From the IMG/VR virus record IMGVR_UViG_2671180753_000007: 6,205 nt of DNA. One strand, 5' to 3'. This DNA is from a virus. Lineage: Duplodnaviria; Heunggongvirae; Uroviricota; Caudoviricetes. Positions 980 through 6,205 of the stretch are shown here, in pieces (position 1 is the first letter of the stretch; each line of letters starts with the position of its first letter). A program made the translations under genes and the position numbers. The notes under the pieces were generated by a model that was given only the letters and a program-made list of their open reading frames with translations, searched no databases and was not told where the DNA came from.

Positions 980-1578
980 TACGCAAACTCCAGCAGCTGC
1001 GCGGCCACATTTTCGACTTGTTCCGGAGAGGAAAATTTACGGAACAGAATCCAGTTCCACAGCACATTCAGAACAGATTTATAAACCTGCTGAAACTCGG
1101 TTTCGTCCATATTCGCAAAAGCGATGGATTTTGCCCGACGCCCGCGGCTACCGTCCGGATAAAAATGTTCGGTGTAAAATCCAGCCTGAATGGTTACCCA
1201 CTCGCGAAAAGCCTCAAACGACTTTAGCAATGCCGTATCCCGGGTTCTGCGTGTCGCAACTGTATTCAGATATTGCTCTGCGGCTTCGCTCAGAGCTGGC
1301 GTATGTTCCCGACCTACTGATTCGCACAGGTAATCAACGAAACCAGACAGCAGTTCTCGTTCGCGAGGCGTGATCGCCCCACCGACCGGAGTCCAGTAAT
1401 CGAATCCCAGTTGCAGGAGTTTGAAAAAACGCTTGTGGAATGCGTAGTTACGCACACGCTTAAAGTCTGCGTGTATCCACTCACCTGTTTTGATTTGATG
1501 CAGAAAATCGCAACTCTCCGGCGTCGCCGGGAGAAGTAATCCGGAAGAGGTTTGTTTGATCAGTTGTATATGCGCCAT
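979..1578 (-). CDS. DUF1367-family lambdoid prophage protein (199 aa), intact copy
   Basis: 199-aa ORF starting MAHIQLIKQTSSGLLLPATPESCDFLHQIK, with SD GGAG 7 nt upstream of the ATG at 1578..1576. Its 5' 307 bp recurs as truncated paralogs at 2852..3158 and 4284..4437. Confidence 0.7.
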   Translation of the reverse strand: MAHIQLIKQTSSGLLLPATPESCDFLHQIKTGEWIHADFKRVRNYAFHKRFFKLLQLGFDYWTPVGGAITPRERELLSGFVDYLCESVGREHTPALSEAAEQYLNTVATRRTRDTALLKSFEAFREWVTIQAGFYTEHFYPDGSRGRRAKSIAFANMDETEFQQVYKSVLNVLWNWILFRKFSSPEQVENVAAQLLEFA

Positions 1579-2093
1579 CGTAGTTCTCCGCTGGCGCAGT
1601 AGAATGGGTGTTCAGCCCGTTATGTAGTATACCAGAATTAATGCCAATACTAACAGGATGCTCTGACTCGCAATTCATCCAGCAGTTTATCATTTCCCAT
1701 AATGTCACTTACCCTCATCGGTAAAAAAATTGCCTTTCGACCATTACGATACATCATTGATTTTTTGGTTTCAGGGAAGTAATCCATTTCGACTATAACT
1801 GACAGGTCATCACGACGTATGACTGCGTATTTACTACTAAATAGTTTCTTTATTTTTTCCACGATGCCTCCAGGTTTATAAGTACAAACGGTTATATCAA
1901 CATAGAGACAAAAGGTGATGCTGCCAACTTACTGATTTAGTGTATGATCGTGTTTTTGAGGTGCTCCAGTGGCTTCTGTTTCTATCAGCTGTCCCTCCTG
2001 TTCAGCTACTGACGGGGTGGTGCGTAACGGCAAAAGCACTGCCGGACATCAGCGCTATCTCTGCTCTCACTGCCGTAAAACATGGCAACTGCA
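1272..2093. repeat. 822-bp direct repeat, copy 1 (DUF1367 5' part, Rem-like ORF, upstream region, IS1 nt 1-180)
   Basis: Colinear with 2852..3673 at a constant offset of 1580 bp. There are 8 mismatches, all within 1312..1497, and none from 1498 to 2093. Confidence 0.95.
1650..1862 (-). CDS. Small hypothetical prophage protein (70 aa), possibly Rem-like
   Basis: GTG start at 1862..1860 preceded by GGAGG. It sits immediately upstream of DUF1367, as rem sits next to ydfU in Qin. Its N-terminus weakly resembles the 95-aa ORF at 4476..4763. Confidence 0.45.
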   Translation of the reverse strand: MEKIKKLFSSKYAVIRRDDLSVIVEMDYFPETKKSMMYRNGRKAIFLPMRVSDIMGNDKLLDELRVRASC

Positions 2094-2147
2094 CGCATTA
2101 TGGGCGTTGGCCTCAACACGATTTTACGTCACTTAAAAAACTCAGGC
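1914..2147 (+). mobile_element. IS1 left-end fragment (IS1 nt 1-319 with an 85-bp internal deletion)
   Basis: Starts with the IS1 inverted repeat GGTGATGCTGCCAACTTACTGAT and matches the complete IS1 at 3494... It lacks the 85 bp lying between two 10-bp direct repeats GGCAACTGCA (3664-3673 and 3749-3758 in the full copy). Homology ends at 2147. Confidence 0.9.
1969..2136 (+). pseudogene. insA: insA pseudogene (frameshifted by the 85-bp deletion)
   Basis: Reads [41 protein letters not shown], identical to the intact InsA at 3549, then shifts frame at the deletion junction and stops at 2134-2136. Confidence 0.8.
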
Positions 2148-2851
2148 TACCTCAGAGAATGGCATCATCGTTGGTCGTGACCGACTGGCACGTCTTCGTA
2201 AGGAGCTAAGGCTACGCTGTAAGCAGAAACGCAAGTTCAGAGCGACTACGAACTCGAACCACAATCTGCCAGTTGCGCCAAATCTGCTGAACCAGACGTT
2301 CGCTCCTACAGCACCAAATCAGGTCTGGGTGGCGGACCTGACGTATGTTGCCACACAGGAGGGATGGTTGTACCTCGCTGGCATCAAAGATGTTTATACG
2401 TGCGAAATTGTCGGCTACGCCATGGGAGAGCGCATGACAAAAGAGCTGACAGGTAAAGCCCTGTTTATGGCGCTCAGGAGCCAGCGCCCACCTGCCGGGC
2501 TAATCCACCACTCTGATCGAGGTTCACAGTACTGCGCATACGATTACCGGGTCATACAGGAGCAGTCTGGTCTGAAAACATCAATGTCGCGTAAAGGTAA
2601 CTGTTACGACAACGCTCCGATGGAAAGCTTCTGGGGAACGCTGAAAAATGAGAGCCTGAGCCACTATCGTTTTAATAACCGGGATGAAGCCATCTCAGTA
2701 ATACGGGAATACATTGAGATTTTCTACAATCGTCAGCGTCGTCACTCTCGTCTGGGGAATATCTCCCCGGCAGCCTTCAGGGAAAAATATCATCAGATGG
2801 CTGCTTAAAAAAAGAACAAATGGTAGTGTCCGCTATTGCCAGTACACCTCA
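2148..2851 (+). mobile_element. 3' fragment of an IS3-family element (IS3 group, possibly IS600-like)
   Basis: Contains only the C-terminal part of an OrfB transposase and ends in a terminal repeat ...CGCTATTGCCAGTACACCTCA (TG...CA type). It abuts the truncated IS1 on the left and the DUF1367 fragment on the right. Confidence 0.8.
2149..2808 (+). pseudogene. IS3-family transposase OrfB, C-terminal DDE-domain fragment
   Basis: A continuous frame from 2149 encodes ...PNQVWVADLTYVATQEGWLYLAG...HSDRGSQY...SMSRKGNCYDNAPMESFWGTLK...YNRQRRHSRLGNISP, with the D, D, E core motifs of IS3-family OrfB. There is no OrfA or OrfB N-terminus. Confidence 0.85.
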
Positions 2852-3158
2852 ATTGCTCTGCGGCTTCGCTCAGAGCTGGCGTATGTTCCCGGCCTACTGA
2901 TTCACACAGGTAATCAACGAAACCGGACACCAGTTTTCGTTCGCGAGGCGTGATCGCCCCACCGACCGGAGTCCAGTAATCGAAACCCAGTTGCAGGAGT
3001 TTGAAAAAACGCTTGTGGAATGCGTAGTTACACACACGCTTAAAGTCTGCGTGTATCCACTCACCTATTTTGATTTGATGCAGAAAATCGCAACTCTCCG
3101 GCGTCGCCGGGAGAAGTAATCCGGAAGAGGTTTGTTTGATCAGTTGTATATGCGCCAT
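2805..3158 (-). pseudogene. DUF1367 gene 5' fragment (copy B), truncated by the IS3-family element
   Basis: The first 102 codons match the 979..1578 protein (MAHIQLIKQT...EAAEQ). The frame then runs into IS sequence after 2852 and stops. Confidence 0.85.
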
Positions 3159-3673
3159 CGTAGTTCTCCGCTGGCGCAGTAGAATGGGTGTTCAGCCCGT
3201 TATGTAGTATACCAGAATTAATGCCAATACTAACAGGATGCTCTGACTCGCAATTCATCCAGCAGTTTATCATTTCCCATAATGTCACTTACCCTCATCG
3301 GTAAAAAAATTGCCTTTCGACCATTACGATACATCATTGATTTTTTGGTTTCAGGGAAGTAATCCATTTCGACTATAACTGACAGGTCATCACGACGTAT
3401 GACTGCGTATTTACTACTAAATAGTTTCTTTATTTTTTCCACGATGCCTCCAGGTTTATAAGTACAAACGGTTATATCAACATAGAGACAAAAGGTGATG
3501 CTGCCAACTTACTGATTTAGTGTATGATCGTGTTTTTGAGGTGCTCCAGTGGCTTCTGTTTCTATCAGCTGTCCCTCCTGTTCAGCTACTGACGGGGTGG
3601 TGCGTAACGGCAAAAGCACTGCCGGACATCAGCGCTATCTCTGCTCTCACTGCCGTAAAACATGGCAACTGCA
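2852..3673. repeat. 822-bp direct repeat, copy 2
   Basis: Matches 1272..2093 (see copy 1). Confidence 0.95.
3230..3442 (-). CDS. Small hypothetical prophage protein (70 aa), second copy, possibly Rem-like
   Basis: Identical at nucleotide level to 1650..1862 and lies within repeat copy 2. Confidence 0.45.
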   Translation of the reverse strand: MEKIKKLFSSKYAVIRRDDLSVIVEMDYFPETKKSMMYRNGRKAIFLPMRVSDIMGNDKLLDELRVRASC

Positions 3674-3824
3674 GTTCACTTACACCGCTTCTCAACCCGG
3701 TACGCACCAGAAAATCATTGATATGGCCATGAATGGCGTTGGATGCCGGGCAACTGCACGCATTATGGGCGTTGGCCTCAACACGATTTTACGTCACTTA
3801 AAAAACTCAGGCCGCAGTCGGTAA
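3549..3824 (+). CDS. insA: IS1 InsA (91 aa)
   Basis: [18 protein letters not shown]...[11 protein letters not shown] matches canonical IS1 InsA as recalled. Confidence 0.95.
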
Positions 3825-4246
3825 CCTCGCGCATACAGCCGGGCAGTGACGTCATCGTCTGCGCGGAAATGGACGAACAGTGGGGCTATGTCGGGGCTAA
3901 ATCGCGCCAGCGCTGGCTGTTTTACGCGTATGACAGTCTCCGGAAGACGGTTGTTGCGCACGTATTCGGTGAACGCACTATGGCGACGCTGGGGCGTCTT
4001 ATGAGCCTGCTGTCACCCTTTGACGTGGTGATATGGATGACGGATGGCTGGCCGCTGTATGAATCCCGCCTGAAGGGAAAGCTGCACGTAATCAGCAAGC
4101 GATATACGCAGCGAATTGAGCGGCATAACCTGAATCTGAGGCAGCACCTGGCACGGCTGGGACGGAAGTCGCTGTCGTTCTCAAAATCGGTGGAGCTGCA
4201 TGACAAAGTCATCGGGCATTATCTGAACATAAAACACTATCAATAA
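3743..4246 (+). CDS. insB: IS1 InsB reading frame (expressed as the InsAB' transposase by -1 frameshift)
   Basis: 167-aa [19 protein letters not shown]...HYLNIKHYQ overlapping insA in the -1 frame. The AAAAAAC slippery site lies at 3800-3806. Confidence 0.9.
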
Positions 4247-4260
4247 GTTGGAGTCATTAC

Positions 4261-4437
4261 CTACCTAATGAAATAGACTATCAAAAAACGCTTGTGGAAT
4301 GCGTAGTTACACACACGCTTAAAGTCTGCGTGTATCCACTCACCTATTTTGATTTGATGCAGAAAATCGCAACTCTCCGGCGTCGCCGGGAGAAGTAATC
4401 CGGAAGAGGTTTGTTTGACCAGTTGTATATGTGCCAT
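4261..4437 (-). pseudogene. DUF1367 gene 5' fragment (copy C), truncated next to the IS1 right end
   Basis: ATG at 4437..4435 with SD GGAG. The first 51 codons (MAHIQLVKQTSSGLLLPATPESCDFLHQIKIGEWIHADFKRVCNYAFHKRF) match copies A/B, then the frame reads 7 unrelated codons and stops at the IS1 boundary. Nucleotide homology to copy B covers 4284..4437. Confidence 0.8.
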
Positions 4438-4475
4438 CGGCTTTCTCCGGTGGCACGGTGTTACACAGCAGGAGT

Positions 4476-4763
4476 TCAATCCTGCTCAAGATTGTAGATG
4501 AGTTTATTCTTCAGCAAAAGCAGAAAACCAGCCTTAAAACCAATCTCTTTCAAAACCCGTAATGATGTGACAAATTCGTCCTCACGCAAAATAAAACCGT
4601 CCGTCAGAAGTCCATTACAAAAATAAAATAACACAGCACCGCTCTTCCTTTGTTGAGATTGCAAACATCTAATGCGGCAATGGCTGACAATCGCTCCATT
4701 CTCAACGCGCACAGCATAGAGGCCATTTTCACTAAAAATTTCACGCAATTCTTCGATTTTCAT
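4476..4763 (-). CDS. Small hypothetical prophage protein (95 aa), divergent Rem-like
   Basis: ATG at 4763..4761 with SD GGAAGGA about 8 nt upstream. It lies between hok and the DUF1367 fragment, the position rem occupies in Qin. Weak N-terminal similarity to the 70-aa ORFs (..LREIFSENGLYAVRVENGAIV vs ..KKLFSSKYAVIRRDDLSVIV). Confidence 0.5.
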   Translation of the reverse strand: MKIEELREIFSENGLYAVRVENGAIVSHCRIRCLQSQQRKSGAVLFYFCNGLLTDGFILREDEFVTSLRVLKEIGFKAGFLLLLKNKLIYNLEQD

Positions 4764-4844
4764 CTTCAGAATCCTTCCAGATAAATAGCTCTCCCCTGTT
4801 CGGGGTCCATCCCTCTTCTCCCTGCGCGCTACTTAAGTGAGTCG

Positions 4845-4872
4845 ATTCTATCTGCGAAGGTGCGCGAATCAA
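4845..4872 (-). promoter_or_regulatory. Candidate sigma70 promoter for the Rem-like/DUF1367 transcript
   Basis: On the minus strand: -35 TTGATT (4872..4867), 16-bp spacer, -10 TAGAAT (4850..4845), about 80 nt upstream of the 95-aa ORF start. Confidence 0.25.
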
Positions 4873-4892
4873 ATTCACCGGAAATAAACAAC

Positions 4893-4935
4893 AAAAAACC
4901 CGCCGAAACGCTGAGAGATCACAGCGATGGGCGGG
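4893..4935 (-). terminator. hok mRNA 3' terminator
   Basis: On the minus strand: CCCGCC-CAT-CGCTG-loop-CAGCG-TTTC-GGCGGG followed by UUUUUU, about 80 nt downstream of the hok stop. Confidence 0.55.
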
Positions 4936-4941
4936 TTAAGT

Positions 4942-4956
4942 GCGGGTGCGTTGAGG
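4942..4956 (-). promoter_or_regulatory. hok mRNA fbi (fold-back inhibition) element, complementary to the 5' tac element at 5327..5340
   Basis: Plus-strand GCGGGTGCGTTGAGG (4942-4956) is the inverted complement of CCTCAAGCACCCGC (5327-5340) with one extra base. In the minus-strand transcript the 3' end can therefore pair with the 5' end, as in hok-family mRNAs. Confidence 0.45.
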
Positions 4957-5012
4957 ATGCCTGACACATCAGAGGTGGGCGGGGATGGGATCAGCTCCCC
5001 GCCCGGTCACTC

Positions 5013-5168
5013 TTACTTCCTGGATTCGTAGTCTACGAAGACAGCGACCTCCGTCTGGCCGGTTCGGATTCGTACCTCACAGAGGTCTTTCCTCGTTACC
5101 AGTGCCGTCACTATGACGGTTAAACAGATGACGATCAGGGCGATTAACATCGCCTTTTGCTGCTTCAT
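5013..5168 (-). CDS. hok: Hok/Gef-family type I toxin (51 aa), hokD/hokC-like
   Basis: MKQQKAMLIALIVICLTVIVTALVTRKDLCEVRIRTGQTEVAVFVDYESRK: a single transmembrane helix and the conserved RKDLCEV.IRTGQ.EVA motif of Hok/Gef proteins. SD AGGAG lies 9 nt upstream of the ATG. Confidence 0.85.
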   Translation of the reverse strand: MKQQKAMLIALIVICLTVIVTALVTRKDLCEVRIRTGQTEVAVFVDYESRK

Positions 5169-5225
5169 AGCCTGCTTCTCCTTGCCTTTCGGCATGTAAG
5201 AGGCTAACCTACATGTGCAAAGCAT
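5013..5225 (-). CDS. mok: mok-like in-frame upstream reading frame overlapping hok (70 aa)
   Basis: ATG at 5225..5223 gives MLCTCRLASYMPKGKEKQA fused in frame to Hok, resembling the in-frame MokC arrangement of chromosomal hokC as recalled. Confidence 0.45.
   Translation of the reverse strand: MLCTCRLASYMPKGKEKQAMKQQKAMLIALIVICLTVIVTALVTRKDLCEVRIRTGQTEVAVFVDYESRK
5182..5210 (+). promoter_or_regulatory. Candidate sok antisense promoter
   Basis: Plus-strand -35 TTGCCT (5182-5187), 17-bp spacer, -10 TAACCT (5205-5210), antisense to the mok/hok translation initiation region. The position and hexamers parallel the plasmid R1 sok promoter as recalled from memory. Confidence 0.4.
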
Positions 5226-5290
5226 GAAATTGGCCTCAGATTAATGTTAAGCGTCTTGCCGGACGCGTAATGTTAACTGGGGCTTTTCTC
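5217..5290 (+). ncRNA. sok: Candidate Sok antisense RNA (3' end uncertain)
   Basis: Would start about 7 nt after the -10 at 5205-5210 and run antisense to the mok start and hok leader. No clean terminator hairpin with a U-tract was found, so the 3' end is approximate. Confidence 0.3.
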
Positions 5291-5344
5291 TATCTGCCTT
5301 TTGGTGTTCATGCCTGAAGCAGATAGCCTCAAGCACCCGCAGTC

Positions 5345-5374
5345 ATTCTACTTACCTCGCCAATATGAAATCAA
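5345..5374 (-). promoter_or_regulatory. Candidate hok mRNA promoter
   Basis: On the minus strand: -35 TTGATT (5374..5369), 18-bp spacer, -10 TAGAAT (5350..5345). The predicted transcript start GCGGGUGCUUGAGGCUAUCUGC resembles the 5' end of plasmid R1 hok mRNA and carries the conserved 5' stem (plus-strand inverted repeat CTATCTGC/GCAGATAG at 5291-5327). Confidence 0.45.
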
Positions 5375-5395
5375 TCAGAAAGGTGCCCCATAAAA

Positions 5396-6082
5396 TCACT
5401 CCTTCTCTTCTTTACCGTAGTGGAGTTGACCAATTTTGATAAGAGGGCGTCCCTGAGATTTGCGGTGTAGATTGGTATCGCGCAGAGAATACACACAGCC
5501 ACAATATTCCTGCTGATAGAATTTTTCGCGCTTGCTGATTTCAATCATACGGGACGAGCCGCCCTGCTTGCGCCAGTTATAATCCCAGTACACCATGCCC
5601 GGATAATGCGCGACGGCTCGCCGCCCACAGTCGTTAACCTGCTGCATATTTTTCCAGCGTGAAATGCCCAGTGAACTGCTGATCACACTGAAACCATTTT
5701 CAGCGGCGTACAGCGCTGTCCGCTCAAAACGCATGTCAAAACACATGGTGCAACGGATCCCTCGTTCGGGCTCCCATTCCATTCCTTTGGCTCGTTCAAA
5801 CCAGTTGTCTGTGTCGTAATCAGCATCAATAAACGGCACGCCGTGTTGTTCAGCAAAGCGAATATTCTCATCCTTACGAATTAAATACTCTTTCTGAGGA
5901 TGAATGTTCGGGTTGTAGAAAAAGATGGTGTAGTCGATTCCCGAGGCCTGAAGCGCCTCCATCACCTCACCGGAACATGGAGCACAGCAAGAGTGCAGTA
6001 GTAGTTTGTTTGCCCCGTTTGGGAGCTCCAATTTGGGCCGTTTGAAATCAGCAACTGTCATAAATATGTTTATTGGGGTCAT
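5396..6082 (-). CDS. queH: QueH/DUF208-like protein (putative epoxyqueuosine reductase family), 228 aa
   Basis: Intact 228-aa ORF with Cys-rich motifs [20 protein letters not shown] and EYCGCVYSL, which fit the cluster-binding motifs I recall for QueH (DUF208). No obvious SD precedes either candidate start (M1 at 6082 or M8). Confidence 0.55.
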
Positions 6083-6205
6083 AAAAATATCAAAGAGTGT
6101 AGCATTAGAACGGGGCTATCGGAAACAGATGTGTGACTGCTCCCCGCCCTTTCGGGTGGTCTCCTGATGATTTGAGGGTGCAGAAATCCCTCCGGTTAAG
6201 GATTA

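Follow-up and report, generated by a model that had tools for sequence, protein, structure and literature searches.

We report that an Escherichia coli-type lambdoid prophage carries, directly upstream of a hok/sok toxin-antitoxin locus, a gene for a full-length QueH, a member of the family of cobalamin-independent epoxyqueuosine reductases also known as DUF208, PF02677, and COG1636. The gene was analyzed in a 6,205-nucleotide stretch of tailed-phage DNA (IMG/VR record IMGVR_UViG_2671180753_000007; Caudoviricetes), hereafter called the window, where it lies on the minus strand. It is under purifying selection and recurs in nearly one-fifth of complete E. coli genomes, a species that universally encodes the unrelated reductase QueG. 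We consider it likely, with a probability of about 0.7, that prophage queH provides a functional enzyme that converts epoxyqueuosine (oQ) to queuosine independently of external cobalamin in the lysogen or infected cell.

E. coli is unable to synthesize vitamin B12 de novo. The queuosine site is position 34 of tRNA-Asp, tRNA-Asn, tRNA-His, and tRNA-Tyr. QueA makes oQ on the tRNA, and either QueG or QueH then reduces oQ to queuosine (PMC10570037, PMC9508795). The QueG step needs cobalamin (PMC4646009), and E. coli grown in M9 medium without B12 contains much less queuosine and much more oQ (PMC7026641). QueH is an iron-dependent alternative to QueG (PMC13443448).

The window encodes a full-length QueH protein

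A preliminary description of the window, made from its sequence alone, had assigned one open reading frame (ORF) to QueH/DUF208 on the basis of its cysteine motifs. The profile search led to this family and not to an unrelated one: the protein matches Pfam PF02677 with an E value of 1.9e-65 and 220.6 bits (cut-off, 23.5 bits), and the match covers the whole domain (profile positions 1 to 174 of 175). Among solved structures, the closest by sequence is Thermotoga maritima QueH (Protein Data Bank [PDB] entry 7lc5; E = 5e-22, residues 27 to 203 aligned). A scan against NCBIfam returned zero matching models, although RefSeq names the protein QueH; we regard this null result as uninformative against membership.

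We next considered the residues that define the family, in an alignment of the window protein with 32 others, 35 to 84% identical to it, drawn from two protein searches. Across these 33 QueH sequences, eighteen columns are invariant, and the window protein conforms at each: the initial Met, C32, C33, C36, N59, E65, R69, E106, R110, C111, C114, R118, K144, Q191, C194, G195, C196, and S199. Far from being misaligned, the seven cysteines C32, C33, C36, C111, C114, C194, and C196 fall opposite T. maritima C9, C10, D13, C87, C90, C169, and C171, of which C9 and D13 have been mutated in PDB entries 9d86 and 9dco. The window protein thereby shows the pattern of an N-terminal CC-x2-C/D, a central RCxxC, and a C-terminal CGC, which, from the alignment and the titles of the mutant PDB entries, we take to be the probable ligands of the [4Fe-4S] cluster and additional iron characteristic of QueH.

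The predicted structure agrees with this assignment, solved QueH having a core that resembles the adenine-nucleotide alpha-hydrolase fold. An AlphaFold2 model of the window protein, built on the 33-sequence alignment, has a mean predicted local distance difference test score of 94 and a predicted template modeling (TM) score of 0.90, and it superposes on T. maritima QueH with a root mean square deviation of 1.3 Å. In a Foldseek search of the PDB, the top five matches are all T. maritima QueH entries (E = 3e-14, target-normalized TM score of 0.92); the next family, TtuA, follows at E = 6e-5, nine orders of magnitude weaker. By profile, conserved residues, and fold, the window ORF is a full-length QueH family member.

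Compared with the T. maritima enzyme (PDB 7lc5, 7lc7, and 9deu), the window protein shares the fold, the CCAP-x, RCxxC, and YCGC motifs, and residues N59, E65, R69, E106, R110, R118, K144, and Q191, but the two are only about 30% identical, and the window gene is borne by a prophage rather than placed in a housekeeping locus. Cys36 of the window protein stands opposite Asp13 in T. maritima; Cys is the rule in the 33-sequence alignment and T. maritima the exception. The window protein also has a basic C-terminal tail of about 25 residues, a feature common to other Enterobacterales QueH proteins.

Coding sequence of queH

The ORF was originally described as spanning 5396 to 6082 on the minus strand and encoding 228 amino acids. 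It is present as given in the ORF listing, with the YCGCV motif, but its start probably needs to be moved. We place the queH start at the ATG at 6061, which gives a coding sequence at 5396 to 6061 of 221 amino acids plus the stop codon, because the upstream ATG is not conserved, the RefSeq form of the protein (WP_012421537.1) has 221 amino acids, and nonsynonymous changes pile up at the N-terminal end. The ATG at 6082 is ATT in the divergent allele of the E. coli A10 prophage and in plasmid copies from Klebsiella and Salmonella, while the ATG at 6061 is kept. In the allele comparison, nonsynonymous differences are concentrated in codons 1 to 10, codons 1 to 7 among them. The queH gene of Escherichia phage HannyBb is changed at 4 of the 21 nucleotides of 6062 to 6082, all 4 changes being nonsynonymous, against a whole-gene divergence of 4.5%. 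The in-frame extension of seven codons at 6062 to 6082 on the minus strand is therefore probably 5' leader and not coding. The guanine-plus-cytosine content of queH is 48.6%, similar to that of the surrounding DNA, and composition measured in this way gives no sign of a recent foreign origin.

queH occupies a cargo slot in lambdoid prophages

The window is a damaged version of a prophage region whose undamaged arrangement is found in E. coli FDAARGOS_944, 99.9% identical over 4900 to 6205, in a prophage that adjoins ybhA/modC. The left part of the FDAARGOS_944 prophage encodes an integrase, an excisionase, Gam, RecE, Rha, CI/Cro-like proteins, YdaT, ydaV, and a DUF977 protein. After DUF977 come queH, hokD, DUF1367, DUF1364, DUF1133 (similar to antiterminator Q), four tRNAs, a holin, RrrD, Rz, terminase, and head genes. 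queH belongs to the early-right operon of this lambdoid prophage, flanked by the replication genes on one side and by ninB/Q on the other.

In the Qin prophage of E. coli K-12, relB-relE lies directly upstream of hokD. Homology between the window and Qin (80%) is limited to 4431 to 5182 of the window (3579 to 4289 of the Qin locus) and ends about 14 nucleotides (nt) upstream of the hok start codon; therefore, relBE in Qin takes the place of queH together with the hok promoter, the mok start, and the sok region. The preliminary description had put the gene in a prophage, directly upstream of hok and at the position of relBE in Qin, and the FDAARGOS_944 and Qin comparisons both show it there. 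The two prophages use the same slot at the ren/nin boundary, a site of accessory genes (morons) in lambdoid prophages that follows the replication genes and directly precedes hokD. They differ in that the cargo here is a tRNA modification enzyme, not a toxin-antitoxin pair, and in that Qin lacks the hok promoter/mok/sok region that is complete in the window. As for the marks of a moron, variable presence and a fixed slot are seen for queH, and a promoter of its own is a sequence-level candidate only.

Distribution and mobility of queH

queH is present, at 90 to 100% nucleotide identity, in 995 of 5,426 complete E. coli genomes (18%), at 1,014 chromosomal places and 3 plasmid places. All listed matches are annotated "epoxyqueuosine reductase QueH" in RefSeq, and the listed carriers include APEC O1, an O25b:H4-ST131 strain, an O157:H7 strain, and an O111:H11 strain. 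An identical QueH protein is recorded in Shigella sonnei Ss046 and S. boydii Sb227. At the species level, the host also encodes QueG without exception, with queG found in 5,426 of the 5,426 genomes. The earlier statement that enterobacteria normally use QueG consequently holds for E. coli but not for the order, in which many members carry QueH proteins 80 to 86% identical to that of the window. In the same way, a QueH gene is unexpected in E. coli and its prophages, as had been proposed, but not in an order where the family is common, and within E. coli itself the gene reaches 18% of genomes.

Among viral sequences, 188 IMG/VR contigs carry a close relative of queH; a profile-based search returned 216 relatives, about 28 of them more distant, and the 80 loci listed from it are all of the E. 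coli type. In nearly all of the 80 viral loci compared, the junction between queH and hok/sok is kept, with hok/sok starting at the nucleotide after the queH stop codon. The isolated Escherichia phage HannyBb carries queH at 8001 to 8687 (95.6% identity), between O/Ren/methyltransferase genes and a Mok/Hok gene, and labels it "hypothetical protein" (record PP925841). In PHROGs, the window protein belongs to phrog_3217 (E = 1.9e-138), a family of "unknown function" that should be named QueH in phage annotation pipelines. Other apparent cases of phage carriage from a tblastn search of phage genomes were not accepted, as they consist of short unannotated fecal contigs and oversized "phage" records (Acinetobacter, 328 to 379 kb; Staphylococcus, 282 kb).

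The neighbors of queH vary by module. Its replication modules are of either the O-like/DnaC-like/Ren-like or the YdaU/YdaV/DUF977 type, and its downstream modules represent two nin/Q types, NinB/YbcO/DUF1133 and DUF968/RusA/Q. E. coli A10 (NZ_CP028764.1, locus 6037 to 7656) carries a 93% identical queH allele in the same slot without hok/sok, and there a DUF1971 gene lies on the opposite strand between queH and ninB. IncF plasmids of Klebsiella, Enterobacter, and Salmonella carry queH copies that are 85 to 92% identical, located among insertion sequence (IS) elements. queH of Klebsiella pneumoniae pHNGS471-3 is near short TonB- and TolA-family genes, and queH of a Salmonella Gaminara IncFII plasmid adjoins fecC and fecE, which belong to iron-dicitrate transport. 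QueH is an iron-sulfur enzyme and may be linked to this iron uptake cargo.

QueH proteins 80 to 86% identical to that of the window, equal in length and with the same C-terminal tail, occur in Erwinia, Photorhabdus, Providencia, Proteus, Gibbsiella, Ewingella, Pantoea, Dickeya, Sodalis, and other genera. In the two genera examined, Photorhabdus and Providencia, queH has a standard chromosomal neighborhood that is free of phage genes, and its upstream region is unrelated to that of the prophage copy. A chromosomal queH of this Enterobacterales type is probably the kind of gene from which the phage copy came.

queH is under purifying selection

queH is intact in every one of the 83 copies compared, a set made up of the window, the 80 viral loci, and two annotated loci. 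Between the window and the commonest allele there are 19 synonymous and 3 nonsynonymous changes, and two of the three nonsynonymous changes are in codons 5 and 10. Assuming about three times more nonsynonymous than synonymous sites, the ratio of nonsynonymous to synonymous substitution rates (dN/dS) is roughly 0.05. queH is under purifying selection, and neutral drift of a passenger gene is unlikely because dN/dS is near 0.05.

A conserved block upstream of queH contains a candidate promoter

A block of about 50 to 65 nt upstream of the queH start is shared by every prophage type, by HannyBb, and by the copies on IncF plasmids; beyond it, the sequences diverge into at least four unrelated contexts. 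This block of the mobile copies is absent from the chromosomal queH loci of Photorhabdus and Providencia. In the window, it contains a candidate queH promoter at 6096 to 6124 on the minus strand, with a -35-like TTCCGA (6124 to 6119), a 17-nt spacer, and an extended -10-like TGcTACACT (6104 to 6096). We infer that the block comprises queH's own candidate promoter, of the extended -10 type, and its leader, and that it travels with the gene.

Further upstream, some 45 nt before the candidate queH -10, the commonest prophage type and HannyBb carry the palindrome GTCTGCTTTGTGTCAAAAGCAGAC, whose core is GTCTG...CAGAC. One locus of the commonest type has it at about 5915 to 5940, and the plasmid copies from Salmonella and Klebsiella have a degenerate form; it may serve as an operator or be what is left of a terminator. 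The window has a different hairpin, CCACCCGAAAGGGCGG, in its place at 6144 to 6159.

A probable cobalamin-independent route to queuosine in E. coli

Every carrier of queH also has queG, and therefore the simplest function for the prophage gene is a cobalamin-independent bypass for times when B12 is absent. Of the two roles that had been speculated upon, alteration of host tRNA queuosine and participation in a 7-deazaguanine-related pathway, it is the first that the evidence favors. We envisage that a lambdoid phage lineage captured an Enterobacterales-type queH along with some 65 nt of the DNA that preceded it and that the gene then became cargo at the boundary of the replication genes and nin. 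In most copies, a complete hok/sok locus is joined to its 3' end. Without B12, E. coli tRNAs stay at oQ; the prophage QueH, as a cobalamin-independent iron-sulfur enzyme, would then reduce oQ to queuosine with no external B12. The enzymatic activity of the window protein is presumed from its family membership and intact residues, and expression of queH in lysogens would proceed from the candidate promoter.

QueG (YjeS), which is present in every E. coli genome with prophage queH, performs the same reaction but belongs to an unrelated, cobalamin- and [4Fe-4S]-dependent family with a different cofactor and depends on supplied B12 in E. coli (PMC4646009, PMC7026641). A parallel to such a pair is in Staphylococcus aureus, in which QueG and QueH are likewise found in one cell and are read by the authors as redundancy tuned to cofactor availability (PMC13443448). 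In that report the pair is a feature of the species, whereas queH of E. coli is an accessory, horizontally mobile gene of 18% of strains.

Several points weigh against a B12-bypass function in lysogens. The consensus promoter scan did not call the candidate queH promoter, whose -35 matches at only 3 of 6 positions, and no Shine-Dalgarno sequence precedes either ATG (6082 or 6061). Transcription of queH could thus be confined to lytic growth and driven by the phage early-right promoter. Corrinoids, B12 among them, are often available in the gut, and this would make the advantage of a bypass smaller. Finally, the literature consulted yielded no case in which oQ-tRNA and queuosine-tRNA differ in decoding or fitness, for which reason the selective benefit of prophage queH is conjectural, and deletion of queG left the growth of a metE mutant unchanged (PMC11841063).

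Of the other explanations, one with some claim to consideration is that QueH serves the phage itself: transcribed with the delayed-early genes from the rightward early promoter, it would complete queuosine on host tRNAs during lytic growth for the decoding of phage mRNA, whatever the supply of B12. We judge this unlikely, although it is compatible with a cobalamin-independent role in lysogens. It would account for the orientation of queH, which runs with the replication-nin-Q early-right operon in every backbone seen, for the presence of the gene in an isolated phage (HannyBb), and for the weakness of the candidate promoter. Yet the same gene and upstream block occur on IncF plasmids without surrounding phage genes, and so are kept outside the lytic cycle, and queH is intact even though IS elements riddle the window, itself a prophage remnant; both facts speak against a lytic role as the sole role. 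The lack of any reported effect of oQ versus queuosine on decoding in the literature consulted counts against this explanation as well. So do the prophage tRNAs, located at 12598 to 12908 of the FDAARGOS_944 locus between Q and the lysis genes. Their anticodons are CAU, UCU (Arg), UGU (Thr), and UCC (Gly), the CAU tRNA being annotated as Ile and called Met by ARAGORN. We considered whether the phage supplies its own queuosine-substrate tRNAs and rejected the idea, since none of the four is such a substrate and ARAGORN finds no tRNA in the HannyBb segment.

Could the gene instead be a neutral passenger, held in place by its fusion to the addictive hok/sok locus or by a slot that tolerates recombination? 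The identical register of the queH stop-hok/sok junction in nearly all of the 80 viral loci and the use of the slot for other cargo in related prophages, such as relBE in Qin, fit this idea. We nonetheless find it improbable given the strong purifying selection (19 synonymous versus 3 nonsynonymous changes, with all 83 copies intact), the retention of every invariant family residue, and the occurrence of queH without hok in the A10 prophage, where DUF1971 is found instead, and on plasmids. A neofunctionalized paralogue acting on a different epoxide, on another tRNA modification, or on a defense-related nucleotide is more doubtful still. Redundancy with QueG in every E. coli strain would speak for it, as would the recruitment of queuosine-pathway enzymes to antiphage systems, of which the QueC-like QatC is an example (PMC13639016). 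Against this stand the very high identity to other Enterobacterales QueH proteins, the unchanged invariant columns, and the observation that hok/sok is the only set of partner genes traveling with queH. Nor do the surroundings show a defense setting of the PADLOC type, although no search with PADLOC was made.

Least credible of all, and to our minds barely worth entertaining, is the second role raised in the preliminary description, in which QueH would act on DNA rather than tRNA within a phage 7-deazaguanine modification pathway of the Dpd or archaeosine type. The substrate of QueH requires the action of QueA on tRNA-bound preQ1. The partner genes that such a pathway would use are also missing from the annotation: a survey of the neighborhood for other que or dpd genes turned up no DpdA/Tgt, FolE, QueC, QueD, or QueE in the 31-kb integrase-to-neck/tail stretch of the near-identical prophage, and the HannyBb annotation likewise lists no DpdA/Tgt or preQ0 synthesis gene in the 16.7 kb around queH, the other 28 kb being uninspected. 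The protein is, moreover, 80 to 86% identical to Enterobacterales QueH proteins, which in Photorhabdus and Providencia, the genera examined, are chromosomal. It is known that phages apply queuosine-pathway enzymes to their own DNA, and phage genes of the pathway have so far been discussed as DNA modification tools, but the main survey reported no QueA, QueG, or QueH homologue in the viruses analyzed (PMC6884629), which places QueH outside the known DNA pathways.

Novelty and implications

That the protein belongs to the QueH family is already known, as RefSeq names it QueH in about a thousand genomes. In the searchable open-access literature, by a search that was not exhaustive, we found no description of lambdoid prophages and IncF plasmids regularly carrying QueH in a universally queG-positive species. 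One table of genes lists an "Epoxyqueuosine reductase" for E. coli genomes, the type of enzyme being unspecified, and was set aside as a report of prophage QueH. What emerges is a genuine QueH that is standard cargo of a common E. coli/Shigella lambdoid prophage family and is also carried by one isolated phage and by IncF plasmids.

If the enzyme works, roughly one in five E. coli strains can complete queuosine without vitamin B12 and the rest cannot. This would be a testable difference between strains in tRNA modification, affecting lineages that include ST131, APEC O1, an O157:H7 strain, and Shigella sonnei, and it would represent a cobalamin-independent isozyme spreading horizontally into a species unable to make B12. 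Studies of oQ and queuosine in E. coli should accordingly consider strain background.

More tentatively, prophage QueH may be a lysogenic conversion factor that works through the tRNA epitranscriptome. Carried on prophages and IncF plasmids along with a promoter of its own, and converting oQ to queuosine on Asp, Asn, His, and Tyr tRNAs when cobalamin is scarce, it might alter the translation of NAU/NAC-rich genes and raise fitness in B12-limited niches; we regard this as possible, though more doubtful than enzymatic bypass itself. NAU/NAC-rich genes have been tied to biofilm formation and virulence in queuosine-deficient bacteria (PMC10570037). If this proposal is true, QueH would be the first tRNA modification enzyme shown to spread as a phage- and plasmid-borne fitness gene in the Enterobacteriaceae, and carriers such as ST131, APEC O1, O157 strains, and Shigella sonnei would gain in B12-limited niches.

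The hok/sok locus adjacent to queH

Directly 3' of queH and on the same strand, the window contains a complete hok/sok type I toxin-antitoxin locus with a Hok ORF, mok, the sok region, and a promoter-like site. The hok mRNA promoter-like site, at 5345 to 5374 on the minus strand, has a -35 TTGATT (5374 to 5369), an 18-nt spacer, and a -10 TAGAAT (5350 to 5345), and scores 9 of 12 in the consensus scan. From the queH stop codon (5398 to 5396) to this -35 there are 21 nt, in close agreement with the estimate of about 22 nt given previously. The hok/sok regulatory region lies at 5163 to 5338 on the minus strand, where it matches the full Rfam sok model RF01794 (positions 1 to 157; 117 bits against a gathering score of 59 bits; E = 5.4e-27), begins 7 nt downstream of the hok -10, and overlaps the mok start. 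The mok and hok frames also lie on the minus strand: the mok-type ORF spans 5013 to 5225, and hok, which encodes 51 amino acids, spans 5013 to 5168 (Pfam HOK_GEF, PF01848; E = 9.8e-23). A scan of 4900 to 6205 found no terminator-like site.

IS damage and further features of the window

Beyond hok, the same strand encodes a phrog_340 ORF, a DUF1367 protein (NinB/Orf by PHROGs), YbcO/DUF1364, and a DUF1133 antiterminator similar to Q. This part of the window is broken up by IS elements. A complete IS1 of 768 bp with both terminal repeats occupies 3494 to 4261, its insA and insB ORFs lying at 3549 to 4246; a cut-off IS1 left end is present at 1914 to 2147, and a fragment of an IS3-family transposase with rve domains at 2329 to 2808. 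The 5' part of DUF1367/ninB is present three times, as an intact copy at 979 to 1578 and as truncated copies at 2805 to 3158 and 4261 to 4479, each of which abuts an IS1 end. The segment at 1272 to 2093 is repeated at 2852 to 3673 (99% identical), and 1424 to 1595 and 3004 to 3175 recur at 4283 to 4454 (95 to 96%), such that the IS-mediated rearrangement spans 1272 to 4454. Taken with the identical QueH proteins of S. sonnei Ss046 and S. boydii Sb227, this IS load points to a Shigella source.

Two further observations concern annotation in this region. The longest ORF of the Q-like DUF1133 gene, at 138 to 812 (224 amino acids, with a GTG start at 812), overlaps the YbcO/DUF1364 gene (689 to 979) by 124 nt; its true start is probably internal, as the RefSeq form in the near-identical locus has 184 amino acids and the Pfam match begins at residue 41. 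In HannyBb, about 20 tiny ORFs of 30 to 45 codons are called between Q and the holin gene (1800 to 4600 of PP925841); these look like over-annotation of a noncoding or repetitive stretch, in which ARAGORN finds no tRNA.

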